From assembly GCA_965208575.1 (NCBI GenBank), contig CBDBOV010000003.1:576001-640000 (forward strand): DNA of 64,000 nucleotides. Direction: 5' to 3'. This DNA comes from Spirochaetia bacterium (GTDB lineage Bacteria > Spirochaetota > Spirochaetia > SZUA-6 > Bin103). Both the position numbers and the translations under genes were made by a program. Positions 1 to 64,000 of this stretch are shown piece by piece; the first letter of the stretch is position 1, and each line of letters opens with the position of its first letter. Under the pieces are notes generated by a model. It had not been told where the DNA came from, did not search any database, and saw only the letters and a list, made by a program, of their open reading frames with translations.

Positions 1-316
1 CCAGGTCGTTCTTGCCGCCCCACCACACGAAGTAGCCGTGCTCCTTGAGGGTGCGCAGCAGGTTGGGCTCGTTCCACTCCGGGTGCAGCATGTGGTGCAT
101 GGTGCGGTGCCCGCGCACGTGCGGGTACCAGCCGCTCATGAAGCTGCACCTGCTCGGTGTGCACACCGGGTTCTGGCAGAACGCCCGCGAGAACGACACC
201 CCATCCCCCGCCACCAGCCGGTCGATCGCCGGCGTCACCGCCGCTTCGTTGCCCACGTGCCCGAGCACGTCCCCCCGCCACTGATCCGGATTGAAGATGA
301 TGATGTCAGGTCGCAT
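1..316 (-). CDS. Sulfatase family protein, 5' part (runs off window edge)
   Basis: Hand translation of the minus strand: MRPDIIIFNPDQWRGDVLGHVG...AFCQNPVCTPSRCSFMSGWYPH, with the sulfatase CxPxR motif and a GGAGGG RBS upstream. Not in the ORF track. Confidence 0.9.
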   Translation of the reverse strand, partial: MRPDIIIFNPDQWRGDVLGHVGNEAAVTPAIDRLVAGDGVSFSRAFCQNPVCTPSRCSFMSGWYPHVRGHRTMHHMLHPEWNEPNLLRTLKEHGYFVWWGGKNDL

Positions 317-421
317 GTGCCCTCCAGGGTAGCAGAAAGCGGAGGTTGGGCCGATCACGGCACGAGGCGTGTAGTCGCGGTGGCGAGCGCAACAAACGCA
401 CACGGTGCAGCGGCGACGCTC
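315..421 (+). pseudogene. Possible decayed copy of the xdhC 5' end
   Basis: GGWADHGTRRVVAVASATNAHGAAATL is colinear with XdhC GGCLERGERVFVACVAESTRGSPGTAGAKL. atg--tgccctccagggtagcag resembles atgagtgcgttctgggagcag. By-eye alignment. Confidence 0.4.
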
Positions 422-457
422 GGTAGACCTTGCAGTTTAGGCGTAGTATGCTCTCCG

Positions 458-685
458 ATGATGGGTCGCAAGGCACAACACGTCGTTCCCAGAGATGGGA
501 AATGGGCCGTACGCAAAACCGGCGCCGATCGCGTAACGAAACATTTCGATACTCAGCGTGAAGCCATCGAGGCCGCCCGAGAACTCGCTCGAAAACAGAA
601 AACGGAGTTGTACATTCATGGGAAGGATGGACGAATTCGCGAACGAGACTCCTTCGGGGACGACCCATTTCCACCAAAGGGATAG
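458..685 (+). CDS. DUF2188 family small protein
   Basis: QHVVPRDGKWAVRKTG...TQREAIEAARELA...ELYIHGKDGRIRERDSFGDDPFPPKG is typical of DUF2188. Confidence 0.85.
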   Translation: MMGRKAQHVVPRDGKWAVRKTGADRVTKHFDTQREAIEAARELARKQKTELYIHGKDGRIRERDSFGDDPFPPKG

Positions 686-694
686 ACACAAAAC

Positions 695-1327
695 CTGGTT
701 GACGCAGACTTCCGTCGAAGCGTTTTCGTAAACTGTCCGTTTGATCAAGAGTACGAGCCGATTCTGCAGGCGGTCTTGTTCTGCTTGGTACGCTTGGGTC
801 TGAAACCGCGCATTGCGACCGAACGAAACGACGCCGGCGAACCAAGAGTAGAGAAGATCATTGAATTGATCAGGTCGTGTCGTTATTCGATTCACGACCT
901 CAGCAGATGTCAAGCCCGCGCCCCGGGGGAACACTATAGACTCAACATGCCCTTTGAGCTCGGAGTCGATTTCGGATGTCGACGCTATGGCGGCGAGCCG
1001 TTTTCGGAGAAGGCTATTCTTGTGCTTGAGGAGCAGCCTTATCGCTATCAGGCTGCACTTTCAGACTTGGCAGGAAGTGACATTGAAGTACATCACGGCG
1101 ACTACGAAATAGCCGTTAGGAAGGTGCGGAACTGGATTACCGGGTTCCTTGCTAGTGAGCTTGTCGGAGCTGCTCGCATCTTGGCAGAGTATGAAGACTT
1201 CCAGAAGTGGAACTACGAGCGTCAACTTGCCGCAGGCTTTTCCGAAGCCGACATTCGGGACTATTCCACCCCGGAGCTACTGCGAGCGATGCTTCGATGG
1301 ATTGAGCAGCGCCGGCCGCGGGTGTGA
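695..1327 (+). CDS. Conserved protein, TIR/nucleoside-deoxyribosyltransferase-like fold (start uncertain, possibly CTG at 695)
   Basis: VFVNCPFD...PRIA...IHDLSR...RLNMPFELG motifs. The conserved N-terminus lies upstream of the track's TTG start at 776. Confidence 0.6.
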   Translation: MVDADFRRSVFVNCPFDQEYEPILQAVLFCLVRLGLKPRIATERNDAGEPRVEKIIELIRSCRYSIHDLSRCQARAPGEHYRLNMPFELGVDFGCRRYGGEPFSEKAILVLEEQPYRYQAALSDLAGSDIEVHHGDYEIAVRKVRNWITGFLASELVGAARILAEYEDFQKWNYERQLAAGFSEADIRDYSTPELLRAMLRWIEQRRPRV

Positions 1328-1451
1328 CACCGGCGTTCCTGTGAAGTGACATCGTGCACCATCACGCCGAGTTGTCTACGAAGCTCTGCAGCAAGCGAGA
1401 GGGTGGGATGTGTTGCCGATGGCCGGATAGGCTATCATGGGATGACGAGAG

Positions 1452-2417
1452 ATGAGTGCGTTCTGGGAGCAGGTGGGTGGTTGTCTGGAGCGGGGCGAGC
1501 GGGTGTTCGTGGCTTGCGTGGCCGAGAGCACGCGCGGCTCGCCCGGCACGGCAGGGGCGAAGCTGCTGGTGGCAGAGGGCGGCGGCCCGTTCGGGACTAT
1601 CGGCGGCGGCACGATGGAACACCGGCTGGTGGAGCAGGCGCGGGAGTTGCTGCGCAGCGGCGGGGCGCAGCCGGAGAAGCGCACCCTGGTGCACAGCGAT
1701 ACCGCGGAAGGGGAACAGTCGGGCATGGTATGCGAGGGCAGCCAGACCAACGTGTTCTGCGTGTTGGCCGGCGACCGCGACTGCACCACCGCGGGCGCCA
1801 TCGCCGCCGCCGTACGGGAGGACCGGCCCGCATGGATGGCGATCGACGCGGGCGGCCTGCGGCTCATGGAGCGGGATGCGGACCTCTCACGGCCGCCGTT
1901 TGCGCTGACCGGGGAGGGGGAGCTCTGGCACTACGAGGAGGACCTGCTGAACCGGCGCCGGCTGGCGGTGATCGGCGGCGGCCACTGCGCGGTGGCGTTG
2001 GCCGAGGCGATGGCGCGCCTCGGTTACCGCACGCAGATCTTCGATACCCGCACCGAGGTGGTGACCCATTACCGCGCCGCGGCCGTGGGGACGGTGACCC
2101 ACGTCGCGGACTACGCCGCCGCGGGACCGCTCATTGCCTGGCCCGAGCTGACCGCCGTGGTGGTGATGACCGCGGACTACCTGACCGACGTGCGCGCGCT
2201 TCTGGGGACGGCGGAACTGCCGTTTCCCTTCGTCGGCCTGATGGGCGGCAGGCGCAAGATCGCCCGGATCTTCGCCAAGCTGCGGGAGGAGGGGACCGCG
2301 CAGGAGGCGCTTGACCGGGTCCACGCACCTGTTGGCCTGGACATCGGCAGCGACACCCCCGAAGAAATCGCTATCAGCGTCGCTGCCCAGATCCTGCGCG
2401 AGCGCAACCGGGCCTGA
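1452..2417 (+). CDS. xdhC: XdhC/CoxI-family molybdoenzyme maturation factor
   Basis: GSPGTAGAKL, GTIGGG, GGGH, VGLMG and APVGLDIGSDTPEEIAISVAAQIL motifs; lies upstream of xdhAB. Confidence 0.9.
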   Translation: MSAFWEQVGGCLERGERVFVACVAESTRGSPGTAGAKLLVAEGGGPFGTIGGGTMEHRLVEQARELLRSGGAQPEKRTLVHSDTAEGEQSGMVCEGSQTNVFCVLAGDRDCTTAGAIAAAVREDRPAWMAIDAGGLRLMERDADLSRPPFALTGEGELWHYEEDLLNRRRLAVIGGGHCAVALAEAMARLGYRTQIFDTRTEVVTHYRAAAVGTVTHVADYAAAGPLIAWPELTAVVVMTADYLTDVRALLGTAELPFPFVGLMGGRRKIARIFAKLREEGTAQEALDRVHAPVGLDIGSDTPEEIAISVAAQILRERNRA

Positions 2418-4350: not shown

Positions 4351-6707
4351 CCAGGATGGCCTCGGCCGACACGAAACACATCGACTCCCATCTGCACGTG
4401 CGCGGCGAGTCGCTGTACGTCGACGACGTGCCGCCGCCGCCCGGCATGCTGCACGCCGCGGTGTTCGGCTCGCCGGTGGCGCACGGCGTCGTCACTCGCC
4501 TGGCCACCGGCGCGGCGCTCGCCGCCCCCGGTGTCGTGGCCGTGCTCACCGCGGACGACATCCCGGGCGTCAACCGCTTCGGCCCGATCATCGAGGACGA
4601 GCAGTTGCTGGTGGAGCGCGAGGTGTGCTTCATCGGCCATCCGATCGCCCTGGTGGTGGCGCGTACCGCGCACCAGGCGCGGCAGGCGCGTGAGCTGATC
4701 GAAGTCGAGATCGACCCGCTGCCGGTGGTGGTCGACCCGCGCGAGGCGTTCGCAGCCGGCGACCTGATCCATCCGCAGCGTACCATGGCGGCCGGCGACG
4801 TCGCCGGGGCATGGGACGACTGCGACGTGGTGGTGGAGGGGCGCTGCGAGGTCGGCGGCCAGGAGCACCTCTACCTGGAGACGCAGCGCTCCCGCGCGGT
4901 GCCCGGCGAGGACGGTGCGATGCAGGTGTTCTCCTCCACGCAGGGGCCGGCCGCGGTGCAGCACGTGGTGGCGGCCGTGCTCGGCAGGCCGATGCACAAG
5001 GTGGAGGTCGACGTGAAGCGGCTCGGCGGCGGCTTCGGCGGCAAGGAGGACCAGGCCACCCACTGGGCGGCGCTGGCCGCGCTGGCCGCCGCCCGCCTGG
5101 AAGCGCCGGTGGAACTGGTGCTGAACCGGCTCGACGACATCCGGATGACCGGCAAGCGCCACCCCTACTCCGCGGACTTCAAGATCGGGCTCACCGCACG
5201 GCGCGAGATCCTGGCCTACGAGGCCACCTTCTACCAGAACTCCGGCGCCTTCGCCGACCTGTCGGCACCGGTGCTGGCGCGCACGCTGTTTCACGCCACG
5301 GGCGCCTACTTCATCCCCAACGTGCGGGTGACGGGCGCGGCGTGCCGCACCAACCTGCAGCCGCACACCGCGTTCCGCGGCTTCGGCGGTCCGCAGGGGA
5401 TGTATGTCATCGAGGCCGCCATCAACAAGGCCGCCGACGCCATGGGCATCGATGCGTCCGCCATCCAGCGCGCCAGCCTGCTGCGCGACGGCGACCGGTT
5501 CCACTACGGCCAGGTGGCCGGGCGCTGCCGCGCCGAGCGCACCTGGGACGAGCTGGAGTCGACGTTCGGGGTCGACGGCATCCGCCGGCGGGTCGCCGAA
5601 CACAACCGCCGCAACTTCGCCCTCAAGAAAGGCTGCGCGCTGATGCCGGTGTGCTTCGGCATCTCGTTTACCAAGAGCCACCTCAACCAGGGCCACGCCC
5701 TGGTGCACGTCTACACCGACGGCAGCGTGAGCGTGACCACCGGCGGCATCGAGATGGGGCAGGGCATCAGCAGCAACGTCGCCTCGGTGGTGGCGCGCAC
5801 CTTCGGCATTGCAAGGCACCGGGTACGCGTGGAGAGCACCAACACCACGCGCGTGGCCAACATGTCGCCGAGCGCGGCCAGCGCCACCACCGACCTGAAC
5901 GGCAACGCCGCCATCATCGCCGTCGAGACTATCCTGGGGGGCATGCGCGAAGCGGCCGCCGCGGAGCTTAGGGCGGTGGATCCCGCCACGGTGACCATCG
6001 CCGGCGAGCAGGTCCGTGTCGCCGGCAGGCCCGCCGGCATGAGTTGGACCGACGTGGTGGACCTCACCTACCACGCCCGCAGGCGGCTGTCCGCACACGG
6101 CTACTACGCCACGCCGGGCATCCACTACGACGAGCAGCGCGAGCACGGCCACCCGTTCGCCTACCACGTCTACGGCACCGCCGTGTTCGAGGTGACCGTC
6201 GACTGCCTGCGGGGCACCTACGCCGTCGACCAGGTGAAGATCGTCCACGACCTCGGCCGCACCATCAACCCTACCGTGGACCGCGGCCAGGTGGAGGGCG
6301 GCCTCGCGCAGGGCATGGGCTGGATGACCATGGAGGACCTGCAGTGCGACGCGGACGGCCGCTGCCTGTCGCACGCCCTGTCCACCTACAAGGCCCCGGA
6401 CGTCTACTTCATGCCCGACGACATGGCGGTGAAGTTCCTGCAGCCGGAGGACAACCCCTACGGCCCGCTCGGCGCCAAGGCGGTCGGCGAGCCGCCGCTG
6501 ATGTACGGCATCGGCGTCTTCTTCGCCCTGCGCAACGCCATGAAGGCGTTCCGCCCCGGCGCCGACCTGCCCCTCGACACCCCGATGACCCCGGAACGCC
6601 TCCTCCTCGCCCTGCACCGGGACATGAAGACCATTGGTGTGAGACAAGTGACGGGTCACCGTTCCCCAGAAATTCGACCCGTGCTCCCAACATTCCGCGA
6701 TGTGTAA
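4347..6707 (+). CDS. xdhB: Xanthine dehydrogenase molybdopterin-binding subunit
   Basis: GGQEHLYLE, RLGGGFGGKE, AFRGFGGPQG, EMGQG and KAVGEPPL motifs; ATGA overlap with xdhA. Confidence 0.95.
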   Translation: MTRMASADTKHIDSHLHVRGESLYVDDVPPPPGMLHAAVFGSPVAHGVVTRLATGAALAAPGVVAVLTADDIPGVNRFGPIIEDEQLLVEREVCFIGHPIALVVARTAHQARQARELIEVEIDPLPVVVDPREAFAAGDLIHPQRTMAAGDVAGAWDDCDVVVEGRCEVGGQEHLYLETQRSRAVPGEDGAMQVFSSTQGPAAVQHVVAAVLGRPMHKVEVDVKRLGGGFGGKEDQATHWAALAALAAARLEAPVELVLNRLDDIRMTGKRHPYSADFKIGLTARREILAYEATFYQNSGAFADLSAPVLARTLFHATGAYFIPNVRVTGAACRTNLQPHTAFRGFGGPQGMYVIEAAINKAADAMGIDASAIQRASLLRDGDRFHYGQVAGRCRAERTWDELESTFGVDGIRRRVAEHNRRNFALKKGCALMPVCFGISFTKSHLNQGHALVHVYTDGSVSVTTGGIEMGQGISSNVASVVARTFGIARHRVRVESTNTTRVANMSPSAASATTDLNGNAAIIAVETILGGMREAAAAELRAVDPATVTIAGEQVRVAGRPAGMSWTDVVDLTYHARRRLSAHGYYATPGIHYDEQREHGHPFAYHVYGTAVFEVTVDCLRGTYAVDQVKIVHDLGRTINPTVDRGQVEGGLAQGMGWMTMEDLQCDADGRCLSHALSTYKAPDVYFMPDDMAVKFLQPEDNPYGPLGAKAVGEPPLMYGIGVFFALRNAMKAFRPGADLPLDTPMTPERLLLALHRDMKTIGVRQVTGHRSPEIRPVLPTFRDV
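6232..6617 (+). repeat. Left copy of a 386-bp direct repeat (xdhB 3' end); partner at 16569-16954
   Basis: Codon-by-codon comparison gives 24 mismatches in 386 nt, no indels, most synonymous. Confidence 0.95.
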
Positions 6708-6814
6708 TCGTGGCCCGTTGGCAGGGTAGATTAGCCGTCCGCATCTCTTTTCCTCGGCGGATACGCACAAAATACCGCTGGTGAGTCTCTCGATGATGGC
6801 GCTACAATTCCGAA

Positions 6815-8773
6815 CTAATTTCTCAAGATCGGGAGGTCATCTCGAAGTTGCTGCGCTAGCTCGTGTTGCGGGAATCTTCGCATGGCTTCCGTCCATATTG
6901 AGATTGCCTCCGCTTTGCGTTGGGCGTTCCACGTTACTCCTCCTAGGTTGAACCAAGCCAGAGCATAGTTTTCATCCTGTTGCAACGCGTTCTTGTAAGC
7001 AGCTATGCATCCCTGAACGTCGCCGGTACCCTCCTTTGCGATTGCAACTTGAAACCAACTCAAAGCATCAGGTTGATGCTCCCGAGCCTGCTCCAAAAGC
7101 ACAGATAGAGCCTCCGGGTAACGCTTCAGGAAGTTCAGCGCCGTGCCCAGACAATACCCGTAGGCTGCCGGGGAAAGTTGATAGGCCTTGCGATAGCATT
7201 TCTCGGCTTCTTTCCAGTCGCCCTCTCTTTGAGCCCAGTGTCCAGCTCGGTCCCACAAAAGAGCTGGATTCTCCACGCCGTATTCTACCAGATCTGAAAC
7301 GGCTTGGCGTACCTCTTCATAAGCCAGCTTGGGGTCTCCGCCCATATCGTGGATACGGAAGTAGCAAAGCAGCTTCGCTCTGTGACCCCGAAGATCCTCC
7401 GAGAATTCTTTGGTATACCGTTCCCAAAAGGTAACTGATAACTCGGAGGACGCGAGCGTGTCCGTTCCGTATGATGCTACCAATTTTGTGCACCATGGCC
7501 ACGACCAATCCAAATCGTTACCAATGTTCAATAGGGTGTTGATATCTCGGAACGCCTCTACGGATCGTCCCAATCGAAACTGAGTCTCAGCGCGCCACCC
7601 GAGGATCGACGGCGACGCGCCAGAAGAGTCAGGAGACCAGACAATGGAATCGAGATGTTGGAGTGCACTTGCGAGGTCCGATCCGTCGCGGATGTACCAC
7701 AGCGCCAACGCAAGGTGTGCCTCGGGAAGATGAGGATCGAGATCCAGTGCCCGAGCATATAGTGTTTTGGCTCCGGATGTTCTGCCCGTCTTTTCCATGA
7801 CTGATCCGAGATTCTTGTAGCAGCGCGCGACAGCGGTGGGGGATTGCTTTGGATCGAGCGCTCGTAGGGCGGCGTTGTATGCATCGCTCGCTTTCTCGTA
7901 CTCCCGTAACGCAAACCAAGCATTTCCAAGGTTGTACCGCATGGTGCCCGGCGAGGGAACGTCACGACTAAGGGCACCGTTGATAGAGTCGATACCTTGG
8001 CGAATTCGCTCATCGTTATGTTTCTGACCAGTTAACGCAAGGTTAATCTCTGCAAAGTACGTTGGAAGAATGGAGTCACTTGAAGTGCCTATTATCGTCT
8101 GAAAAGTGTCGAAATTACAGCTGATAATAGCGTCGTTTCCGCGATTGTATAGATCGAGTAGGAGTCCGTGAGCTTTCCTCCGATCAGAGGGAACATACAA
8201 GTCGAGTGAAGTGGTTTCTACGTTGCGCACTATGTTCTCTGGAGGCGCTGCTTCGAAATTCAGCCGGCTATCCCTCGCGCTCTTGGCATGGATAGTGACA
8301 TAGCGGGACAATTCTTCCTGAAAGAACGGATCTAAAGCCGTGGCGAACCAGACTGTTATGGTGTGTTGGTTCACATCATTTGTCAGGGTGTGTTCATGTT
8401 CACGTAATACGTCATCGACCATGCGCACCAACAGACGCGCTGACGGTACATGGTAACACACAAGTATCGAGCCGGGCTGCATAGCGAGATAGTTCAAGGT
8501 GCGTCGCTTTATCGGTAGGCTTACGGCGCCATCATTATTCGGTGTCTTGTTCGTGGCCTTCAGTTGGACGTGTACACGAATATTAGTCATCGTGCCATCG
8601 TTGACGGCTTCGATCTGAACGTCTGTACCGTAATCAATCCTGTCCGGAGACTGCACTACGAACCTTCCGCATTGAGAGATTGCCTTGTGAAAGGCGCTCT
8701 CCGATTGATCTCTTATTTGGCTATTCTCGTCTCGTCTGGGAAGATCATTCAAACTGAACAACCGCTTTGGCAC
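6815..8773 (-). CDS. DUF4365 (restriction-endonuclease-like) N-terminal domain + TPR repeat protein
   Basis: DYGTDVQIE...VHVQLKAT nuclease-like motif; TPRs such as YNLGNAW, YKNLGSVM and AWFNLGGV. Confidence 0.75.
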   Translation of the reverse strand: MPKRLFSLNDLPRRDENSQIRDQSESAFHKAISQCGRFVVQSPDRIDYGTDVQIEAVNDGTMTNIRVHVQLKATNKTPNNDGAVSLPIKRRTLNYLAMQPGSILVCYHVPSARLLVRMVDDVLREHEHTLTNDVNQHTITVWFATALDPFFQEELSRYVTIHAKSARDSRLNFEAAPPENIVRNVETTSLDLYVPSDRRKAHGLLLDLYNRGNDAIISCNFDTFQTIIGTSSDSILPTYFAEINLALTGQKHNDERIRQGIDSINGALSRDVPSPGTMRYNLGNAWFALREYEKASDAYNAALRALDPKQSPTAVARCYKNLGSVMEKTGRTSGAKTLYARALDLDPHLPEAHLALALWYIRDGSDLASALQHLDSIVWSPDSSGASPSILGWRAETQFRLGRSVEAFRDINTLLNIGNDLDWSWPWCTKLVASYGTDTLASSELSVTFWERYTKEFSEDLRGHRAKLLCYFRIHDMGGDPKLAYEEVRQAVSDLVEYGVENPALLWDRAGHWAQREGDWKEAEKCYRKAYQLSPAAYGYCLGTALNFLKRYPEALSVLLEQAREHQPDALSWFQVAIAKEGTGDVQGCIAAYKNALQQDENYALAWFNLGGVTWNAQRKAEAISIWTEAMRRFPQHELAQQLRDDLPILRN

Positions 8774-8776
8774 GGT

Positions 8777-11620: not shown

Positions 11621-11961
11621 TACTGCGGTCCCGTAGATATCAGTGGTTCAATGAGCGTGAGGAGGTTCGGGACGCTCTGCTGCGAGGTGTTCCATACGAT
11701 GTCCATATCGATGTCGTCATACCCGTGGATCATCCGGTTGCGCATTCCGGTCATTGAGGTCCAGGGGACCTCGGGGTGACCTGCGCGGAACTCCGACGAC
11801 ACCCGACCGGCGGCCTCACCGACAATCTCAAGACGACGGATGACCGAGTCCTGAAGTGCCGTGTCCCGAAGGAATCGGTCACGTTCTACACCTCGCACGT
11901 AGTCAACTATGAGACGAGCTGACAAGACGATGTCGACGAGATAGTCTGAATCACGACTCAT
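11620..11961 (-). CDS. HEPN (DUF86/HepT-like) ribonuclease toxin
   Basis: RRLEIVGEA and GMRNRMIHGY (RxxxxH); overlaps the MNT gene. Confidence 0.9.
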   Translation of the reverse strand: MSRDSDYLVDIVLSARLIVDYVRGVERDRFLRDTALQDSVIRRLEIVGEAAGRVSSEFRAGHPEVPWTSMTGMRNRMIHGYDDIDMDIVWNTSQQSVPNLLTLIEPLISTGPQ

Positions 11962-12280
11962 AGATGACCCGCGCTGATTGCAGTATCGCTCTTCGGCGTC
12001 CTTGATTGTGGCTTCTCTCGATGCCACGTCGACTGACCAGATCCACGTCATGTCCGAATATCGATCGGAGATCTTCCTCCATCTGATGCAGATCGAACAG
12101 CGTATGTTCGGCTTTCTCTCCTAGCGTGACCAGAACATCAACATCGCTCTCGGGGCCAAAGTCATCGCGGAGTACCGAGCCGAACAGCGCGAGTTCGGAG
12201 ACGTCCCAGCGCCTGCAGAACCCGGCAACCTCTGCTTGGCGGGCCTTGATCTCCTCATTCAGGCGCAGGTTTCCCTCCAT
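11951..12280 (-). CDS. Minimal nucleotidyltransferase (MNT) antitoxin
   Basis: LFGSVLRDDFGPESDVDVLV (GS...DxD) and VDLVS motifs. Confidence 0.9.
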   Translation of the reverse strand: MEGNLRLNEEIKARQAEVAGFCRRWDVSELALFGSVLRDDFGPESDVDVLVTLGEKAEHTLFDLHQMEEDLRSIFGHDVDLVSRRGIERSHNQGRRRAILQSARVIYES

Positions 12281-14882: not shown

Positions 14883-14990
14883 TAATCCCTCGTCTATCTC
14901 GTAACAGGGTGAACAAAACAACAGGTCGCCACCCATGTAGATGACAGAACCAGCTCGGACGTGAGAAGTCGAGGTCGTTCATGACCGATG

Positions 14991-35002: not shown

Positions 35003-36559
<1,557 letters not shown>

Positions 36560-49081: not shown

Positions 49082-49221
49082 TTGTGGTCGCTGGTAGCAG
49101 GAAACCAGACCCTTAGAAAATTCAAGGCGGATGTTGATTTTATTGAGGGGAGGGCTGACACTTCGGCTGTGGGTTTGATGCGGGAGGCGTCGAAGGGCCA
49201 AGTGCAATCAACGGTGGGCAT

Positions 49222-54696: not shown

Positions 54697-54799
54697 CCGC
54701 GAGCGAATAAAACATGCTACGGTAGGCAGGTAACACCCGCGGCCAAGCGGGCGTGCAACAAGATTCGCGCTATGTTTTTCGTGACGACCCTCGACGACG

Positions 54800-55314
54800 A
54801 TGCCAACATACTCCGACGCTGAGCTGGAGTTGCTGATGGCGGACCTGGAGTCCGACCTGGTGGAGCGGAAGGAGTCGGCCGCCGACGGCCGGAAGATCCG
54901 CCGCAACATCTGCGCTTTCGCCAACGACCTGCCCGGGAGCGGCCGCGCCGGGGTCGTGCTGGTAGGCGTTCGCGACGATGGTTCCTGCGCGTCCCTGACG
55001 ATCAACGACGAGTTGTTGACCCGGCTAGCGAACATTCATGGAGAGGGCGACATTCTGCCGCTACCGTCAATGACCGTCCAGAAGCGGGTACTCGATGGCT
55101 GCCCGGTGGCGGTCATAACCGTCGAGCCGTCGCTTGATCCGCCGGTGCGATACCGCGGCCGAGTCTGGGTCCGCGTCGGTCCGTCGGTGCGCGAGGCGGC
55201 GGTCTCCGATGAGCGCATGCTGCTCGCCGGACACTCGCCGAGAATGGCAACCCTCCTCCGGAATTCAACTTCCAACCGACGCTGGTGGTAGCCACCGTCC
55301 GGATTGCAGCGTGA
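54800..55314 (+). pseudogene. AlbA_2 (Schlafen-like) domain gene, internally deleted
   Basis: ESDLVERKES...ICAFANDLP...VGVRDDG N-terminus. An out-of-frame tail LAENGNPPPEF...VRIAA* ends in a GTGA overlap with parA. Confidence 0.7.
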
Positions 55315-56300
55315 CGAGCATCGCGGTATTCAACAACAGGGGCGGCGCCGGGAAGACCTCGCTCGTCTATCATCTCGCGTGGATGTATGCCGAACTGGAC
55401 TTCGACGTTGTGGTGGCCGATCTGGATCCGCAAGCCAACCTGACCAGCATGTTTCTGGACGACGACGAGATCGAGGATCTGTGGGCAGGCGACAGCCGTA
55501 GCCGAACGATCCATGCATCTTTGCGCCCGCTCCTGGACGGAACGGGGGATGTCGCGGAACCGCACGTGATCGAGCCGACGACGGGTATAGGGCTGGTTGC
55601 CGGGGACATGCTGCTGTCGGGCGCGGAAGATGAACTGGCAAGCAATTGGCCCGACTGTCTCGATCGCAAGCCGCGAGCATTCCGCGTGCTGTCTGCTTTT
55701 TGGCGAACACTGCACATGGCGGCGGAGGCGAAAGGAGCAGACCTGATTCTGGTTGACGTCGGCCCCAATCTCGGCGCGCTGAATCGGGCAGCTCTCGTTA
55801 CGGCCGATTACGTCGTGGTGCCCCTGGCGCCGGACCTCTACTCCGTACAGGGTCTGCGCAACCTTGGCCCGACCCTGCGGCAGTGGCGGCGGGAGTGGTC
55901 GGAGCGCCGCGATCGCAACCCGGTAACCGATCTCGACATGCCTCGGGGGAAGATGCACCCCGTCGGATACGTGGTGCTGCAACATGCCGCGCGGCTCAAC
56001 CGTCCGGTGAAGGCCTATGAACGTTGGATGGAACGCATTCCGGGCGCGTACCGCGAGTTCGTGATCGACAAGTCAACGACGCGTACGCCATCGACCTACA
56101 CCGATCCGCACTGCCTTGCGACGTTGAAGCACTTCCGGAGCCTGATGCCGCTGGCGCAGGAGGCGCGCAAGCCGATGTTCGCTCTGAAGCCGGCGGACGG
56201 CGCCCTCGGCGGCCACGCCAACGCCGTGCGGGGCTGCTACCGCGACTTTCGTGCGCTCGCGCGCGAAGTGGCGACCCGTTGCGGCGTGACTCCCGAGTGA
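55311..56300 (+). CDS. ParA/Soj-family ATPase
   Basis: FNNRGGAGKT, DLDPQANLT and VDVGPNLGALNR motifs. Confidence 0.88.
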   Translation: MTSIAVFNNRGGAGKTSLVYHLAWMYAELDFDVVVADLDPQANLTSMFLDDDEIEDLWAGDSRSRTIHASLRPLLDGTGDVAEPHVIEPTTGIGLVAGDMLLSGAEDELASNWPDCLDRKPRAFRVLSAFWRTLHMAAEAKGADLILVDVGPNLGALNRAALVTADYVVVPLAPDLYSVQGLRNLGPTLRQWRREWSERRDRNPVTDLDMPRGKMHPVGYVVLQHAARLNRPVKAYERWMERIPGAYREFVIDKSTTRTPSTYTDPHCLATLKHFRSLMPLAQEARKPMFALKPADGALGGHANAVRGCYRDFRALAREVATRCGVTPE

Positions 56301-56319
56301 ACGGCGTGCCGTATCAGTC

Positions 56320-57849: not shown

Positions 57850-60669
57850 ATGCAGACTGCGGCGGTCAGGTCTCGTCCGTTGCTCGCCGGCGCCGCCGCC
57901 AAGCGCCGCGTCGCCGGCGTCGCGCTGCTGCTCGTCATCCTGGTGCCGTTCGCGGCGTTGAACCGGCTCCCCAAGCTGGATACGGTGCGCGAGGATCTGC
58001 GCGCTGCGCTTGCCCCCACCGCGCAGTGTTTTCAGGGGTTCTGCATCGAGGACCCCGACCGGGCGGGCGAACGGAGTGGGTTCTTCGAACGTTGGTGGCG
58101 ATTCTCCGTGACCTACCTGCAGCTCGTTGCCGTCGGGATGTTGTTCGCGTTCGCGGCCGCCGCCATTGCCGAGGCTTTCCTGGTCGCCGAGGTGTCGGTG
58201 AGTGCAGGCGCCACTACCGCGCCCGCTGGACCCGGGCGTTGGCGACGCATCCTGAAGGGCATCGGTCTCGGCCCCGTGCTCAACCTCTGTTCGGCCTGCA
58301 TCGCTCCGGTGTCCAGCACGCTGCGGCGCGGCGGCATGGGAGTGGAGGGCGCGCTCGCGCTGGTGCACGGATCGGCCACGCTGAACGTGCCGTCGCTGCT
58401 GATGATCGCCGTGGTGTTCACGCCCCTGCTCGGTGCGAGCCGGCTCGTTCTCGGGCTGGTCGCCGCGCTGTCGCTGGGGCCCCTGGTCGCGTGGGCGGTG
58501 CGCCGGCGCGGCGCGCGCCTGGACGACCGCGCGGGCGCCGAGGTCGCGTGCGAGCTGCCGGCGATGGCAGCGGAAACGGCGACCTGGTCGGAGGTGCTGC
58601 GCACCGGCGGCGCGGCGTGGCTGCGCTCGTTCGTCCGCCTGGTGCGGCGCATGTTGCCGCTCATGATCGTGGCCGGCTTCGCCAGCGGCGCGGCCATCCA
58701 GGCGTTGCAACCGGAGACCGTTACCGCCTACCTCGGCGACAGCCTGCTGGGGGTGGTAATCGCGGCGACGCTCGGGGTGCTTATCAACGTGCCGCTGCTG
58801 TTCGAGATCCCGCTGGTCGCGCTACTGCTGATCCTCGGCGCCGGCACCGCGCCGGCCGCGGCGCTGCTGTTCGCCGCCGCCGCCGCGGGGCCGGTCACTT
58901 TCCTCGCGCTTGCCAAGGCCCTCGGTCGCCGCGGCGTCGCCGTCTACGCGGGCGGCACCTGGGCCATCGCCGTCCTTGGGGGATGCGCGGTGCTGCTGGT
59001 GGGGGCGCTGCTGGGGCCGGAGCGGGCGGCGCTGCGACTCGACGGCGGTGCAGCTACCGAGCGCACCGGCCACGTGGGCGCCGTGCCCAACGCCATCGTG
59101 CTGGCCACCTGCGCCGGTGAGCCGGCGCTGTGCCCGGAGCAGAGCGGACTCCGTTGGCCGCACACGCCCACCATCCATGGGCACTCGGTGACCAGTGCCG
59201 GGGGCGCCGTCGGCGACTTCGACCGGGACGGTTGGCAGGACCTGTTCGTGCCGTCGGGCGGCACCTCGCCCGACCGGCTGTACATGAACAACGGCGACGG
59301 CACGTTCACGGACCGCGCCGCCGAGGCCGGAATCGCGGCCCGCCATCACGGCTACGGCGCGGCCGTCGGCGACGTGGACGGCGATGGCTGGCTCGACATC
59401 TTCGTCATCAGCTACGGCAGCGTGGACCAGCGCTTCACCATGCCCGGCAACCACCGCCTGTACCGCAACAACGGCGACGGCACGTTCACCGACATCGCCG
59501 CCCGCGCGGGGGTGGCGACCACCAGCCTCAAGCAGCCGACCGGCACCGGGGCCAGCTTCGGCGACTACGACCTCGACGGCGACCTGGACCTGGCCGTGGC
59601 CTCGTGGTTCTACGGCGAGGGGGGCAACGCGCTGTTCCGGAACAACGGCGACGGGACGTTCGAGAACGTGACCTCACTGCTGCCATTCGGTGGCAAGCGT
59701 GCCCCGATGGGGTATACGCCGCTGTTCGCCGACATGGACGGCGACCGCTATCCCGAGTTGCTGTGGGCCGCCGACTACTTCACCAGCAGCTACCTGCGCA
59801 ACGACGGCGGTGGCGGCTTCACCGACATCACCGCGCAATCCGGGACCGGGCTGGACGCCAACGGCATGGGCGCAGCGGCAGCCGATCTCGACAACGACGG
59901 CAGGCTCGACTGGTTCGTCACCTCAATCAGCACACGGTATGCGGTCGACAAGGCGCCGGGTACCGGGAACTTCCTGTACCGCAACCAGGGCGGCCATCGC
60001 TACGAGTCGGTCGGCGACCGCGCGGGGGTCGAGGAGGGCGGCTGGGGATGGGGTGCCGCGGCGGTGGATCTGGACCACGACGGCTGGCTCGACCTCGTGC
60101 AGACCAACGGCTGGGAGGGCCACAACGGCCGCGACGATCCCGAGTGGGCGTCCGAGACGACCAGGGTGTTCCGCAACCTCACCGCCGTCTCGTCCGAGCT
60201 GACCTTCGCCGACGTCGCCGAACAAGCGGGCCTCGTGCACCGCGGGCAGGGCCGCGGAGTGGTTCACCTCGACTATGACAATGACGGCGACCAGGACCTG
60301 GTGATCTTCAACAACGGCGGGCTACCCACGTTGGTGCGCAACGAGATCGACACGGGTACGGACGGTAGCGGGCACTGGCTGCGCGTGTTTCTGGACACCG
60401 CAGCGCGTGCAGACTTGGCGCCCGACGGTTTCGGCAGCCTGGTCGCGGTGCGCTCCGGCGATCTTCGCCAGGTGCGCTACGTCGGCGCTGCGGCCGGCTA
60501 CCTCGGCCCGTCCGAGCTGTCGGCCCACTTCGGTCTCGGCGCCGCGCCGGTGGTGGACGAGCTGCAGGTGCACTGGGCCGACGGCAGCACCTCCACCTAC
60601 CACCAGGTGCCCACCAACCGCACCCTCACCATCACGGCGCGTCAGGAGTCTGTCGGATTGGCGCGTTAG
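57850..60669 (+). CDS. Fusion: ArsP/DUF318-like permease + FG-GAP repeats + ASPIC/UnbV C-terminal domain
   Basis: TM region with LNLCSACIAP; repeated DxDxDGxxD and LYRNNGDGTFTD; C-terminal GYLG....AHFGLG...VHWADG. Confidence 0.8.
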   Translation: MQTAAVRSRPLLAGAAAKRRVAGVALLLVILVPFAALNRLPKLDTVREDLRAALAPTAQCFQGFCIEDPDRAGERSGFFERWWRFSVTYLQLVAVGMLFAFAAAAIAEAFLVAEVSVSAGATTAPAGPGRWRRILKGIGLGPVLNLCSACIAPVSSTLRRGGMGVEGALALVHGSATLNVPSLLMIAVVFTPLLGASRLVLGLVAALSLGPLVAWAVRRRGARLDDRAGAEVACELPAMAAETATWSEVLRTGGAAWLRSFVRLVRRMLPLMIVAGFASGAAIQALQPETVTAYLGDSLLGVVIAATLGVLINVPLLFEIPLVALLLILGAGTAPAAALLFAAAAAGPVTFLALAKALGRRGVAVYAGGTWAIAVLGGCAVLLVGALLGPERAALRLDGGAATERTGHVGAVPNAIVLATCAGEPALCPEQSGLRWPHTPTIHGHSVTSAGGAVGDFDRDGWQDLFVPSGGTSPDRLYMNNGDGTFTDRAAEAGIAARHHGYGAAVGDVDGDGWLDIFVISYGSVDQRFTMPGNHRLYRNNGDGTFTDIAARAGVATTSLKQPTGTGASFGDYDLDGDLDLAVASWFYGEGGNALFRNNGDGTFENVTSLLPFGGKRAPMGYTPLFADMDGDRYPELLWAADYFTSSYLRNDGGGGFTDITAQSGTGLDANGMGAAAADLDNDGRLDWFVTSISTRYAVDKAPGTGNFLYRNQGGHRYESVGDRAGVEEGGWGWGAAAVDLDHDGWLDLVQTNGWEGHNGRDDPEWASETTRVFRNLTAVSSELTFADVAEQAGLVHRGQGRGVVHLDYDNDGDQDLVIFNNGGLPTLVRNEIDTGTDGSGHWLRVFLDTAARADLAPDGFGSLVAVRSGDLRQVRYVGAAAGYLGPSELSAHFGLGAAPVVDELQVHWADGSTSTYHQVPTNRTLTITARQESVGLAR

Positions 60670-62402: not shown

Positions 62403-62597
62403 TCACCGGCCCAGCAACGCGGGACCGCCGCCCACCAGGATCGGCAATTGCAGGTCCACCAGGGTAACCACCGGGATGATGGCGTTCTTGACCGCGTGGC
62501 GCAGCACGACCGCCTTCTCCTTCAGGCCCTTGGACCAGGCGGTGCGGACATAGTCCTGCCGCAGCACCTCCAGCATCATGGTGCGCGTCATGCGCAT
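62403..62597 (-). pseudogene. Internal fragment of a DppB/OppB peptide ABC permease
   Basis: MRMTRTMMLEVLRQDYVRTAWSKGL...RHAVKNAIIPVVT covers the EAA loop only. Confidence 0.85.
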
Positions 62598-62680
62598 GGT
62601 GTCGCTCTTGCTGCGCGCCCGGTGACTGTATACGGTTGGCTGTTCTTGGCTAGTCAACGAACTAAGTCTATTCTGCCCTG

Positions 62681-62880
62681 GTGACTACGGTGAACATACA
62701 CGAGGCAAAGACGCATCTCTCCCGGCTGCTGAAGCGGGTAGCCGTTGGCGAGCAGATCGTCATCGCCAGGGCCGGCACGCCGATTGCCCGGCTCACTCCG
62801 TACAAGGAACAGGGCCGGCAACGTGTCGCCGGACGAGAATCGTGGAGTGAATGTCACGTCATCGTACATCGACATCCAAG
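62681..62880 (+). pseudogene. Phd/YefM antitoxin with decayed tail; cognate toxin lost
   Basis: VNIHEAKTHLSRLL..V..GEQIVIARAGTPIARL, after which the ORF runs on into non-homologous sequence to 63013. Confidence 0.75.
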
Positions 62881-63043
62881 CTCGGTTTCGAGGGACCTCC
62901 GCGGGTTGACGGTTCGACTCCCGGTCCACCTGCGCGCCTCGGCCGCCTCCGCGGCTTGGAATTGCTGGTACCCGGGAAGGCTGCCGGCGGCGGGTGGCCG
63001 GCACTGGTCATAATTTCCGCCTGGTCGTATTATATGACTACTT

Positions 63044-63274
63044 ATGAACACGCGGACGATCGGCGCAGCGAAATTCAAGGAGCAGTGTCTGGCGCTTCTC
63101 GACGACCTCCCCAGTGACGGCCTGATCGTTACCAAACACGGCAAGCCGGTGGCCCGGGTTGTGCGCTATCCAGTGCAACCGCGCCAGCTGATCGGCGCGT
63201 TACGAGGGAAGCTAGCCGTACGCGGTGACATCCTCACCACGGGAGTGACGTGGGATGCCGCTGCTGAATCTTGA
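63044..63274 (+). CDS. Phd/YefM-family antitoxin
   Basis: IGAAKFKEQCLALLD...IVTKHGKPVARV. Confidence 0.88.
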   Translation: MNTRTIGAAKFKEQCLALLDDLPSDGLIVTKHGKPVARVVRYPVQPRQLIGALRGKLAVRGDILTTGVTWDAAAES

Positions 63275-63629
63275 TACGCACATTCTCGTGCACGCCCTCA
63301 CCGGCGACCTGAGACCTACGGAGGAGTCGATGCTGATCAAGCACGGCTGGGGAGTGGCGGCTATCGTCTTCTGGGAGCTGGCGAAGTTGTCGCAGCTTGG
63401 CCGGATCGACGTCGATCTCGGCGACGCCGAGGTCCAGAGTGTGCTGGCCAGCCTGCACATTTGGCCGCTCGACCTCGCCGTAGCCCGGGCCTCGATCGAC
63501 CTGGACTTTCGCGGCGACCCGGCGGACGAACTGATCGCGGCGACCAGCGTGGTGCACAACATCCCCCTGCTGACTCGAGACCGGCAGATGCTGAAGTCGA
63601 CGCGGGTACCGCTGGCGCGCGTGACCTGA
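63255..63629 (+). CDS. PIN-domain (VapC-like) toxin
   Basis: LDTH, WE, DPADELIAAT and LLTRD motifs; overlaps the antitoxin. Confidence 0.9.
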   Translation: MPLLNLDTHILVHALTGDLRPTEESMLIKHGWGVAAIVFWELAKLSQLGRIDVDLGDAEVQSVLASLHIWPLDLAVARASIDLDFRGDPADELIAATSVVHNIPLLTRDRQMLKSTRVPLARVT

Positions 63630-63685
63630 TCTTATATGATGTGACCCCCCGCGCCCTGCTCTACCTGATCACGCCCCGGCGTGCT

Positions 63686-64000
63686 CTACTTCGTCATTTC
63701 CAGGTCTCGACCGCCAGGCCCGGGGTCACGATCCCCCCGTCGGGAGACTCCTGAGCAAACACGGCGCTCGCCATCACGAACGCCACGAGGAACCGGGCTG
63801 CCCCGAAGATGCCAAGGCTTAGCCGGCGAGATTGGCGCGGGTTCATATTCACGAGCGCGGAAGGTAGATGGCAGCGGGAGGTTAGTCAATTCGTGCTCGG
63901 GCTTGATAGCCGTCCCTGCCGTTAGTATTTTGTACGTATGAAGCGCAAGCTTGTACGCGTCGGAAACAGCCTTGCCGTCACCCTGCCGCACGATCTGGTC
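63686..64000 (-). CDS. 3' part of an unidentified gene entering from beyond the window
   Basis: Open frame to the window edge, lower GC, no recognisable motif. Confidence 0.35.
   Translation of the reverse strand, partial: DQIVRQGDGKAVSDAYKLALHTYKILTAGTAIKPEHELTNLPLPSTFRAREYEPAPISPAKPWHLRGSPVPRGVRDGERRVCSGVSRRGDRDPGPGGRDLEMTK

Follow-up and report, generated by a model that had tools for sequence, protein, structure and literature searches.

A displaced xdhB gene end behind a candidate defence island, and a probable one-sided homologous entry, in a Spirochaetia genome

Results

The xdhB locus and its cargo island

We analyzed a window of 64,000 nt (the whole stretch of DNA studied here) from a Spirochaetia genome, G000, which is a metagenome bin with 5.75% contamination. 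The earlier note on this DNA had proposed that core genes are pervasively shadowed by diverged copies of their own ends ("echoes"), read as native ends displaced by incoming cargo. For xdhB, the echo was reported as 386 nt at ~94%, and this was borne out: 6232-6617 recurs in direct orientation at 16569-16954, over 386 nt at 93.8% identity (E 1e-151), above all controls described below. At the protein level, the gene end and its echo are 94.5% identical over 128 aa, and the echo frame is open for 129 codons and matches Pfam MoCoBD_2 positions 224-280. Identity of the left copy to G006, the closest relative, is 95.3%, similar to the rest of xdhB, and 14 identical bases lie at the left edge of the repeat. 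Homology of xdhB to its relatives ends at 6616-6621 in 11 of 11, and the last 30 codons of the gene (6618-6707) are island DNA.

Table 1. Features of the window (positions in nt)
Feature	Position	Strand	Remarks
DUF2188 protein and unknown ORFs, echo-less cargo	311-1409		site empty in G007
xdhB, xanthine dehydrogenase molybdopterin subunit	4356-6707	+	Pfam Ald_Xan_dh_C, MoCoBD_1, MoCoBD_2; gene intact
Left (in-gene) copy of the 386-nt direct repeat	6232-6617	+	nucleotide alignment
Cargo island, 9,951 nt	6618-16568		GC 0.47-0.61 versus about 0.70 in flanks
DUF4365 (nuclease-like) and TPR protein, candidate defence gene	6815-8773	-	Pfam DUF4365 1.2e-14, TPR families; PADLOC PDC-M02A 4e-10
ResIII helicase, weak type III restriction subunit match	8777-11620	-	Pfam ResIII 1.6e-8; PADLOC REase_III 2e-10
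HepT toxin; MNT antitoxin	11620-12051; 11951-12280	-	Pfam HepT-like 4e-25; NTP_transf_2 2e-16
Type III methyltransferase, two overlapping ORFs	12280-14936	-	N part 13734-14936, C part 12280-13944
Two ORFs without assigned function (209, 210 aa), right island end	14991-16323	-	no Pfam or PADLOC match
Right copy (echo), orphan xdhB 3' end	16569-16960	+	short native tail and own stop; adjoins native flank
5'-nucleotidase, native neighbour of xdhB	16996-18453	-	Pfam; beside xdhB in four syntenic genomes
livK-livH 3' end tandem duplication	28676-28816	+	echo 28762-28816 keeps ATGA overlap with livM
nupA-end/nupB-start junction tandem duplication	34817-35066	-	single copy in G007, G001, G005, G003; duplicated in G006
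Fused remnant, HEC-01A/HEC-01B candidate defence pair, echo-less	48277-49121		site empty in G007
Schlafen/AlbA_2 protein and ParA-like AAA_31 ATPase, echo-less cargo	54700-56319	+	site empty in G006, G007
Fourth echo-less cargo segment	60670-64000		

The island holds a type III R-M system, HepT/MNT and a DUF4365-TPR protein. Its two methyltransferase ORFs cover PADLOC MTase_III model positions 77-354 and 363-545 and the two halves of Pfam N6_N4_Mtase, and this split gene is probably frameshifted. Atlas look-alikes of the 209- and 210-aa ORFs are hypothetical proteins, with DUF6642 in 11% of one cluster, and no further copies of either ORF were found in the genome. We also noted a weak DarT/PARP lead for these two ORFs. 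No integrase or transposase domain was present among the 58 window ORFs scanned with Pfam, as had been claimed, and none of the eight island ORFs carried a recombinase domain (Pfam, PADLOC). Genome-wide, PF00589 has 17 matches, the nearest of them 47 kb before the window, and PF00239 has none.

Origin of the two xdhB copies

An empty-site allele was found in a relative, whose locus L004 joins xdhB directly to the 5'-nucleotidase gene. L004 is colinear with 16569-18432 of the window at 91%, and its xdhB aligns to 5601-6619. By this colinearity it is the echo, rather than the in-gene copy, that is contiguous with the native flank.

The left and right copies show 24 differences, which are mostly synonymous (15 versus 9 non-synonymous), as originally described. 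With dS at 0.183 and dN at 0.032, omega (dN/dS) is 0.17 rather than near 1, and there are no stops or indels in 128 codons. The left-right distance falls in the range of distances to other species (18-28 differences). In a tree with the relatives, which was a star, the copies were not sisters; no shared derived states were found between them, and a rare state common to both occurred at one weak site only. The two copies differ as orthologues from different species would. At three sites where at least 10 of the 11 relatives agree, the orphan copy has a different amino acid.

Sites that distinguish the copies and at which just one of them agrees with G006 were counted by hand. Over repeat positions 1-260 the left copy matches at 14 sites and the right at 3; over positions 261-386 the numbers are 3 and 4. 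This contrast (Fisher p estimated at roughly 0.1) does not fix the crossover point statistically, and the mosaic would suit a single crossover close to the repeat's right end. In the first 300 nt of the right copy, identity to L074 (94.3%) exceeds that to G006 (92.6%), which is not the case in the adjacent flank windows. Because G000 and G006 are themselves ~93% identical and both copies lie within the native range, either copy may be the foreign one.

Logan contigs, from four runs of a single sample that may be the source of the assembly, bridge the echo into the native flank. The island-to-echo junction (16568|16569) was absent among the Logan contigs listed, and those at the left junction include just 26-28 nt from xdhB, short of the 31 nt that the tool requires. 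Other alleles coexist in this sample, as some of its contigs part from the window sequence beyond 6619/6623 and beyond 16486. Read depth in run X1 is alike in island and flank (27 and 29-34).

Two related species also have related cargo and echoes at this hotspot. G006 has a 1.05-kb insert at the xdhB end with an 84% nucleotide match to the HepT/MNT cassette, and a 75-nt xdhB echo with a 1-nt deletion; the island ends adjoining the repeat differ between G000 and G006. G005 matches the cassette including MNT, and has a 315-nt echo of the znuB 3' end (96-98%). Its xdhB fragment is 94% identical to the gene of G000 versus 89% to its own.

Two short tandem duplications

The echoes reported for the nucleoside ATPase (61 nt, ~89%) and livK-livH (60 nt, 73%) were also recovered above controls. 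The last 61 nt (35006-35066) of the nucleoside ABC ATPase gene nupA (35003-36559, minus strand) recur at 34908-34968 with 88.5% identity, and the start of the next gene, the permease nupB (34817-34870), recurs at 34969-35022 (83%). This duplication includes a 9-nt microsatellite at 34854-34925, which together with the nupB-start and nupA-end echoes forms a 51-codon chimeric ORF. In livK-livH (26574-28736, plus strand), 28676-28730 recurs downstream over 55 nt at 76%, and the extra segment of ~82 nt is present in G006 and absent in G007, G001, G003 and G005. The start/stop overlaps said to be kept at two echoes are there: GTGA at both nup junctions, and that with livM at the liv echo.

Both duplications have no DNA between their copies and are about 86-150 nt long. 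Slippage or unequal exchange is a simpler explanation for them than an insertion whose cargo was later lost exactly. They span overlapping stop/start junctions, and would be tolerated since each gene retains one intact end.

Control tests for the remaining gene ends

Gene ends (78, from 39 genes) were compared by blastn with 30 unlinked regions, each 40 kb long, elsewhere in this genome, and Smith-Waterman scores were set against 8 codon shuffles, with inverted orientation as a further control. The only non-paralogue ends in the window above every control were those of xdhB (184 vs 19 in shuffles), the nucleoside ATPase (48 vs 22) and livK-livH (29 vs 17). Thus, 3 of the 14 genes named as having echoes stood, while the others did not exceed controls, with troA borderline (scores of 24-25, null maximum 19-25; gapped, about 60-66% identity). 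The uraD 5' echo scored 23 against a null maximum of 24-25, and those of xdhC, SRPBCC, yip1, adh (both ends), uraH, gfo and the desaturase all lay within the null. For guaD, the best 3' match (72 nt, 69%) sits inside a paralogous amidohydrolase gene (23276-23347). The permease 3' echo could not be located; what lies at 62403-62657 is a fragment from a permease family of high copy number, with 18 tblastn matches in the genome and dozens in relatives.

Without the three strong cases, direct matches to non-genic segments were no commoner than inverted ones, as judged by eye. In a 3-kb adjacency test, p<=0.05 was reached by 18 of 78 ends in direct orientation versus 3 of 78 inverted (3.9 expected), and neighbouring paralogues account for at least 8 of those 18 (livG/livF, troC/troD, macB1/macB2, nupA/ssuB, guaD/ade). 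We read the other named echoes as background similarity within a genome of strong codon bias and 67-70% GC.

Most defence and toxin-antitoxin cassettes were said to sit between gene end and echo, but this did not hold: of five cargo segments, the xdhB island alone does so. The four echo-less segments, three of which have empty sites in relatives (Table 1), represent common variable cassettes located between conserved genes; ordinary homologous recombination on both sides is the probable route of their exchange.

Frequency across the genome

Partial-gene echoes, counted with a crude gene caller of our own that overlooks genes of low GC, numbered 29 in the predicted geometry (3' echoes downstream, 5' echoes upstream) and 17 in the opposite one; for 3' echoes, 23 were downstream and 9 upstream. 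The proposed geometry is favoured only modestly. Its density is about one per 220-280 kb, not one per few kb, and pervasiveness is not supported. No PF00589 match lies between the copies in any of these 29 pairs. Omega at the other loci is mostly 0.1-0.5, the site of a sulfatase-locus echo is empty in G003, and 4 of 7 further annotated loci have cargo of conflict type or of a PD-(D/E)XK family. Repeats at other loci and in other genomes are 57 to 1468 nt long, have no common core and lie at many unrelated genes. Low-copy local repeats are 185 direct versus 7 inverted; in 400 kb of a single-contig relative, they are 14 versus 0.

Discussion

The displaced-native-end reading is upheld for xdhB by the L004 empty site, the contiguity of echo and flank, the low dN/dS and the lack of a recombinase. 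Its principle had been thought undescribed at such density, but the parts of PMC5361080 on C-terminal displacement and homology-facilitated illegitimate recombination (HFIR) share the same idea. In rhs/CDI/T6SS effector-immunity loci, as covered there, incoming DNA pairs with the conserved part of a gene and brings downstream cargo, and the old end or immunity gene is displaced downstream, giving strings of orphaned 3' regions. No integrase is involved and HFIR is the mechanism proposed; for displacement these parts cite Jackson 2009, Poole 2011 and Koskiniemi 2014, and for HFIR the reference list gives de Vries & Wackernagel 2002 and Prudhomme 2002. The xdhB locus resembles these loci in homology-paired entry, downstream cargo and an old end pushed on. 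However, those are polymorphic toxin genes whose new end is itself the selected cargo, whereas xdhB encodes a housekeeping enzyme of purine catabolism with functionally equivalent ends and unrelated defence cargo.

In HFIR, according to the portions of PMC3240628 and PMC5361080 that deal with it, one homologous anchor suffices to trap foreign DNA, and in Campbell-type insertion-duplication a circle with one homologous segment leaves direct repeats around the insert. A single anchor and flanking direct repeats are likewise seen at xdhB. Those are laboratory events with near-identical anchors, whereas the xdhB case is natural, with a 6% diverged anchor, and is repeated at a single hotspot across three species. 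The site pattern at xdhB also does not favour the wholly native echo expected under classic HFIR. Minimal mobile elements, as the relevant part of PMC3787668 describes them, are cassettes that vary among close relatives between conserved genes, lack mobility genes and move by flanking homologous exchange; core defence hotspots (PMC10250203, PMC10121019) are a related case. Such elements fit the four echo-less segments and the nupB|nupC cassette of relatives. They do not explain the xdhB echo, because two-sided exchange leaves no duplicated gene end.

Elements such as e14 and phage 21 at icd, or ICESt1/3 and the integrase-less CIMEs at fda, are inserted at the 3' end of a protein gene and bring a substitute for that end; they use a recombinase and a short core, and decayed ones can be without integrase. 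At xdhB, too, a gene-end duplication flanks the insert and the gene is intact, but neither a recombinase nor a common core was found. A site-specific island, with a tyrosine or other recombinase lost or acting in trans and an attachment site bearing a replacement xdhB 3' end, would give the same geometry of direct repeats, kept gene and displaced native end. The 14 identical bases would suit a core, insertions occur at the xdhB end in three species, and two ORFs without assigned function adjoin the echo. We nevertheless consider this origin unlikely, given the absence of recombinase domains from the island, the few and distant PF00589 matches, the coreless repeats of varied length elsewhere and the differing island ends of G000 and G006. 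Nor does the island supply a native-like stop to xdhB.

Less probable again is an assembly chimera, in which sequences of two strains or species in the sample, one having the island and the other lacking it, were joined in a way that put a second xdhB end behind the island. Contamination of the bin, the variant alleles at both junctions, and the excess of direct repeats together with orthologue-like copies, which resemble strain overlaps, would suit such an artefact. Against it, the separately assembled G006 has the xdhB echo and both tandem duplications, G005 has echoes at the same hotspot, the single-contig relative shows the same direct excess, and island and flank depths agree; strain overlaps should also abut, not sit 10 kb apart behind unique DNA. 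Duplication of the 386 nt in situ on insertion, by long target duplication or unequal exchange, followed by drift of the orphan, is already disfavoured and ranks marginally lowest. It would most simply account for the two short cargo-free echoes, and the orphan's changes at conserved sites are a sign of relaxed constraint. Yet at dS 0.18 a neutral orphan is estimated to gain about 26 non-synonymous changes, versus 9 seen over both copies; the reading frame is undamaged, and the copies are not sisters.

The repeat, cargo, empty site, orthologue-like divergence and lack of a recombinase at xdhB fit one-ended homologous recombination, either Campbell-type or HFIR. We infer that homology on one side only brought a defence island of some 10 kb, devoid of integrase, into the boundary between xdhB and the 5'-nucleotidase gene. 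On this account, 386 nt from the 3' region of an orthologous xdhB would have lain beside the cargo in the incoming DNA. The cargo would come to lie behind xdhB, and the other gene-end copy be orphaned before the native flank, if a circle recombined by one crossover, or if a linear end-cargo-end molecule did so by two, both within these 386 nt. The insertion would have survived because xdhB, which now reads into the island, stayed usable.

Overall, we give a probability of roughly 0.6 to an account in which xdhB has one end displaced through one-sided homology, the nup and liv echoes are tandem duplications, and the rest is background similarity or ordinary cassettes. The genome-wide excess of the predicted geometry over the opposite one indicates that the mechanism is real but occasional.

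Gene-end repeats in the window

The window lies in a 6.5-Mb, 6-contig, 67% GC metagenome-assembled genome (G000), in which genes were called using a codon-usage model trained on that genome, and 58 window ORFs were scanned against Pfam. The native genes encode xdhC-xdhA-xdhB; a 5'-nucleotidase; a znu/tro-type metal ABC system; uraH-uricase-adenine deaminase-guanine-deaminase-like amidohydrolase-uraD; a livKH-M-G-F system; a Bmp/nucleoside ABC system (nup); a NitT/TauT-type ABC system; sugar-type oxidoreductases; troABCD; an acyltransferase; Yip1-HlyD-MacB; a desaturase; an ArsP-FG-GAP protein; and an alcohol dehydrogenase. Lower-GC stretches with defence or toxin-antitoxin genes are interspersed among them. 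As the earlier note had observed, none of the 58 ORFs has an integrase or transposase Pfam domain.

That note also proposed that 14 named genes are accompanied by diverged copies of their own ends (echoes), with cargo in between. A word-7 self-comparison of the window revealed one outstanding local direct repeat, at the 3' end of xdhB (386 nt, 93.8%), and short ones at the 3' ends of the nucleoside ABC ATPase gene nupA (61 nt, 88.5%) and of livKH (55 nt, 76%); the remaining strong pairs were paralogous ABC or FG-GAP domains. Four controls were applied. For each of 39 genes, the terminal 150 nt at either end were compared by blastn with ±20 kb and with 30 random unlinked 40-kb G000 regions, and the 39 entire proteins by tblastn with the same targets. 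Two tests used Smith-Waterman alignment: one of 300-nt ends to every non-genic segment, its null drawn from 8 codon shuffles and from inverted orientation, and one of ends to the predicted side over 3 kb, its null drawn from 40 codon shuffles.

Three gene ends in the window, and no others, exceeded every control: xdhB 3' (score 184 against a null maximum of 19), nupA 3' (48 against 22) and livKH 3' (29 against 17). The tblastn comparison against flanks and null regions returned only xdhB, nupA and an out-of-window arsP-FG-GAP copy. The troA 3' end was borderline (24-25 against 19-25), its gapped alignments of ~60-66% identity falling in a GC-rich spacer that also yields the best inverted matches for many unrelated queries. 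The uraD 5' end scored 23 against a null of 24-25, the guaD 3' match falls inside the paralogous adenine deaminase gene, and the xdhC, SRPBCC, yip1, adh, uraH, gfo and desaturase matches all lie inside the null range. In the 3-kb test, 18 of 78 ends reached p<=0.05 in direct orientation vs 3 of 78 inverted (3.9 expected), and at least 8 of these 18 are same-strand paralogous neighbours. Real echoes are confined to three of the 14 genes, which confirms the note's observation in part, and the window does not support gene ends as landing sites at the density claimed. Weak nucleotide echoes in GC-rich genomes call for controls that preserve codon usage.

Coordinates of features (window positions unless a contig or extracted locus is named; G000:C3 is the contig that holds the window)
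Feature	Coordinates	Strand	Description
xdhB repeat	6232-6617; 16569-16954		In-gene copy; echo
Type III methyltransferase	12280-14936		Two overlapping ORFs matching consecutive parts of one PADLOC model
livKH	26574-28736	+	Periplasmic binding protein fused to LivH-type permease (unusual fusion)
livKH repeat	28676-28730; 28762-28816		In-gene copy; echo
nupB-nupC overlap	33772-33818		Cassette site in relatives
Chimeric ORF	34851-35006	-	51 codons: two junction echoes and 9-nt microsatellite (DPEVPA repeats)
nupA repeat	35006-35066; 34908-34968		In-gene copy; echo
tro permeases	44248-47018		Both carry a fused iron-dependent repressor C-terminal domain (unusual)
Echo-less segments	311-1409; 48277-49121; 54700-56319		Second: fused HEC-01A/B remnant; third: Schlafen/AlbA_2 and ParA-like ATPase
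HEC-01-like ORF	48425-49081		218 aa; first ~74 residues of HEC-01A-like ATPase joined to HEC-01B-like middle
ArsP-permease/FG-GAP/ASPIC gene	57880-60669; G000:C3:649938-652762; G000:C3:662562-665371		Three direct copies, last two outside the window
Orphan BPD_transp_1 fragment	62403-62657		
ABC permease stretch	62426-62604		~175 nt, within the orphan fragment
G005 hotspot echoes	L154 (G005:C4:845000-856500) 4466-4889	reverse	znuB 3' echo, with an xdhB fragment next to it
AAA-ATPase_like + PDDEXK_9 examples	L069:1234-3039; L065:2471-4264		
1,389-nt sequence	L156:5612-7001 (G000:C6:1374611-1376000)		Candidate insertion sequence
Small dispersed repeat	L063:2711-2793 (G000:C5:64710-64792)		~83 nt
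PF00589-rich array	G000:C1:143000-206000		60-kb stretch

Two further repeat types were observed at the right of the window. The three ArsP-permease/FG-GAP/ASPIC copies (~95.5% nucleotide identity, spaced 16 and 12.6 kb) are part of a more extensive group of direct segmental repeats (1-5 kb, 94-99%) beginning at the window's right end. The ABC permease stretch has dozens of matching loci per genome in the related genomes G001, G006 and G007 (77-93% nucleotide identity), a level unusually high for paralogues.

Short echoes at nup and liv

Read along the coding strand, the nup junction begins with the nupA end and a GTGA overlap. Next come 14 codons that echo the start of the permease gene nupB and 20 that echo the nupA end, and then a 9-nt microsatellite coding for DPEVPA and another GTGA overlap, which precede the real nupB. 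The arrangement is a ~100-nt tandem duplication across the overlapping stop and start, later expanded by the microsatellite. The chimeric ORF is predicted to be translationally coupled to both neighbours through the GTGA overlaps. The liv echo retains an ATGA overlap with livM, which suggests that the echo is the ancestral end and the present livKH end the duplicate. Both duplications occur in G006, the closest relative, and both regions are single-copy in G007, G001, G005 and G003; no DNA lies between the copies in either G000 or G006. Adjacent copies, no foreign DNA and single copies in outgroups are the marks of tandem duplication by slippage or unequal exchange. Such duplications are seen at gene boundaries because elsewhere a gene would be broken, and the same survivorship would give echoes of any origin their arrangement of 3' echoes downstream and 5' echoes upstream.

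A defence island between xdhB and its echo

The two xdhB copies enclose an island of 9,951 nt with a GC content of 0.47-0.61, vs ~0.70 in the flanks. Pfam and PADLOC assign its products to a DUF4365-TPR protein (PADLOC candidate PDC-M02A), a ResIII helicase, HepT/MNT, a type III methyltransferase in two ORFs, and two proteins of no assigned function, whose Atlas look-alikes are hypothetical proteins and not recombinases. The R-M system is probably broken, judging from its split methyltransferase. The island ORFs are single-copy in G000, and no signature gene common to the cargo segments was found.

Homology of xdhB to all 11 aligned relatives ends at window 6616-6621, exactly at the repeat end; thus, the last 30 codons of xdhB are island DNA. 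The echo bears its own two-codon tail and stop. An empty-site allele is present in a relative: in the extracted locus L004, xdhB directly adjoins the 5'-nucleotidase gene and ends where the repeat ends. Because L004 is colinear with the echo and its flank (window 16569-18432, 91%), it is the echo, and not the in-gene copy, that sits on the native flank.

The adjacency of xdhB and the 5'-nucleotidase gene is found in four genomes, G000, G006, G007 and G001. The site is empty in G007 and holds an unrelated 1.17-kb insert without an echo in G001. In G006, a 1.05-kb insert, 84% identical over 748 nt to the island's HepT/MNT cassette, is followed by a 75-nt xdhB echo that lacks 1 nt through deletion. 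Synteny differs in G005, yet an MNT gene again lies in the space after xdhB, together with a 315-nt echo of the convergent znuB 3' end (96-98%) and a 111-nt xdhB fragment nearer to G000 xdhB (94%) than to G005's own (89%). At the xdhB loci of 11 further relatives (10-kb flanks), no echo was seen except one weak 67-nt match.

Four runs of one sample, which may be the source of the bin, contain 92-96% of sampled words. Logan contigs extend into the island from 6590/6592, and past the echo end into the flank from 16855/16866, and island and flank have similar depth in run X1. Further contigs part from the reference beyond 6619/6623 and beyond 16486, which shows that the sample contains additional alleles. 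Among the Logan contigs listed, none crosses 16568|16569, and those at the left junction are 3-5 nt short of the bridging rule; these contigs neither prove nor refute the assembly at the xdhB locus.

Origin of the xdhB repeat

The 128 codons of the repeat contain no stops or indels. The copies differ at 24 sites, 15 synonymous and 9 non-synonymous (dS 0.183, dN 0.032, omega 0.17), a distance equal to those separating either from other species of the genus (18-28). They have one derived site in common, and a weak one, and the maximum-likelihood tree of the 386 nt is unresolved and star-shaped. Duplication in situ followed by drift of the orphan would predict, by our estimate, ~26 non-synonymous changes and copies that are sisters. 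Neither was seen, and therefore most of the divergence arose in working genes, in different lineages. The displaced-end proposal is supported here by an omega far from 1 and by copies that are not sisters. Three amino-acid changes in the orphan, at sites conserved in all or 10 of 11 relatives, would fit a shorter period of relaxed constraint.

By hand count, positions 1-260 of the repeat agree with G006 at 14 informative sites in the in-gene copy vs 3 in the echo, and positions 261-386, with few sites, at 3 vs 4. In sliding comparisons, the first 300 nt of the echo are less similar to G006 than to a different relative, which is not so for the flank beyond. Sliding identity also gives no clear recombination breakpoint upstream of the repeat along the xdh operon. 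This mosaic, although site numbers are small, resembles the outcome expected if one reciprocal crossover had occurred close to the right-hand limit of the homology: a gene with a native left and a foreign right part, and an echo with a foreign left and a native right part.

A site-specific integrative island at the 3' end would likewise be bounded by direct repeats (attL/attR), and the 386-nt repeat does lie at both island ends. Such an island encodes a tyrosine or serine recombinase, and none of the 8 island ORFs has a recombinase domain in Pfam. PF00589 is absent from the window; G000 has 17 matches, the nearest 47 kb before the window, and 0 matches to PF00239. A candidate crossover core of 14 identical bases lies at the left edge of the repeat, the G006 echo begins 311 nt further in, and the other echo loci have no common core. 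A diversity-generating retroelement, a phase-variation cassette and gene conversion from a silent copy were dropped: the 58 window ORFs include no reverse transcriptase domain, the copies are direct and not inverted, and the host is a housekeeping gene; among the 24 differing sites, A is found in the echo at 6 and in the gene copy at 2. One-ended homologous insertion, by comparison, leaves a displaced end on the native flank, an empty site in relatives and copies that are xenologues diverged under purifying selection, and all of these are found at xdhB (omega 0.17, star-shaped tree). From sequence comparison, we therefore read the xdhB mechanism as a probable variant of known one-ended homologous insertion and C-terminal displacement. 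Here the host is a housekeeping gene, the cargo is a defence island, and one hotspot is used in three species.

Most PF00589 matches in G000 form one array on contig 1, 9 of the 17 lying in a stretch full of 85-95% direct repeats, interpretable either as arrayed recombinase paralogues or as nested, decayed elements.

Repeats across the genome

A chunked self-comparison of all six contigs (low-copy, 2-3 copies; >=80 nt; >=80% identity; local; merged) identified 192 low-copy local repeats, 185 direct and 7 inverted. By our gene calls, the 185 direct pairs include 24 whole-gene duplications, 27 in which neither copy has a called gene and 88 unclassified. The geometry predicted for displaced ends (intact gene outside the pair, fragment across the gap) is seen in 29 pairs vs 17 with the opposite geometry; the excess is at 3' ends (23 vs 9), whereas 5' ends show 6 vs 8. 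Most omega values between copies fall at 0.1-0.5 and stops are nearly absent; none of the 29 predicted-geometry pairs has a PF00589 match between its copies. The displaced-end explanation holds at one locus and, at low frequency, genome-wide; it fails for the window as a whole.

Cargo was annotated at seven further loci: an AAA-ATPase_like/PDDEXK_9 gene beside an amidase; a member of the same family beside a sulfatase; RlaP with an AEP-TOTE primase beside an NHL-repeat gene; a subtilase with an AAA ATPase; small ORFs of no assigned function beside ppk1, which has two nested echoes; a 383-aa ORF, likewise unassigned, beside a methyltransferase gene; and metabolic genes beside an M28 peptidase. 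At the sulfatase locus, the site is empty in G003, where the 88-nt repeat occurs once. In two 400-kb samples taken from relatives with single-contig assemblies, direct and inverted low-copy repeats numbered 14 vs 0 and 3 vs 1, and the syntenic 400 kb of G000 had 13 vs 0. Therefore, direct-repeat abundance is a trait of the group and not of this assembly.

The AAA-ATPase_like + PDDEXK_9 family is the most interesting loose end of the analysis. It has 17 near-full-length genes in G000 (74-81% amino-acid identity) and dozens of copies in relatives. Direct repeats of adjoining sequence (57-1468 nt, >=85% identity, within 7 kb) bracket 7 of the 17, against a background of 142 of 2733 genes of >=300 aa (5.2%; binomial p 1e-5, ignoring non-independence). 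No transposon-like common termini were found in these units, whose homology is restricted to the coding region, and among 12 relatives no clean empty site was recovered for two of the loci, multicopy families having swamped the searches. Separately, the 1,389-nt sequence on contig 6 is 100% identical at 22 or more other places in G000, none in the window, and is presumably an active insertion sequence; the small dispersed repeat on contig 5 matches dozens of G006 loci at 83-90% identity.

Cargo without echoes

The three cargo segments tabulated above have no echoes. The first two are missing from G007 and the third from both G006 and G007, where the sites are empty. The 218-aa ORF in the second appears to be a deletion remnant of a two-gene candidate defence system. 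Between the overlapping nupB and nupC genes, relatives carry a cassette of an AAA ATPase (~379 aa) and a 239-aa partner, which is intact in G006, truncated in G001, a remnant in G003 and absent from G000, G007 and G005; no repeats were found around it. Variable content between conserved genes, with no mobility genes, characterizes minimal mobile elements and defence hotspots; the three segments show this pattern and, like the nupB-nupC cassette, behave as such elements do.

Implications for defence-island entry

One broader reading, which we consider unlikely, at roughly one chance in five, is that in this high-GC Spirochaetia lineage cargo lacking an integrase routinely spreads with part of a host gene end serving as its portable homology arm. 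An island between two gene-end copies would then be a self-propagating unit with a putative dependence on RecA, which would loop out and invade an empty orthologous site, 60-400 nt of homology being sufficient. The spread may be driven by cargo whose nucleases cut empty sites, the candidates being the island DUF4365 protein and the 17-copy AAA-ATPase/PD-(D/E)XK family.

To our knowledge, defence islands are usually placed in hotspots between core genes, and the entry route of integrase-free ones has rarely been shown. The xdhB locus appears to preserve the scar of such an entry: the island is flanked by a xenologous gene end and by the displaced end, and sister species provide an empty site along with two related sites that are occupied. 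It would carry the principle of C-terminal displacement beyond toxin loci, to a metabolic gene of the ordinary kind, and it provides a signature that can be screened for in closed genomes: low-GC cargo flanked by partial gene copies that are directly oriented and diverged like orthologues.
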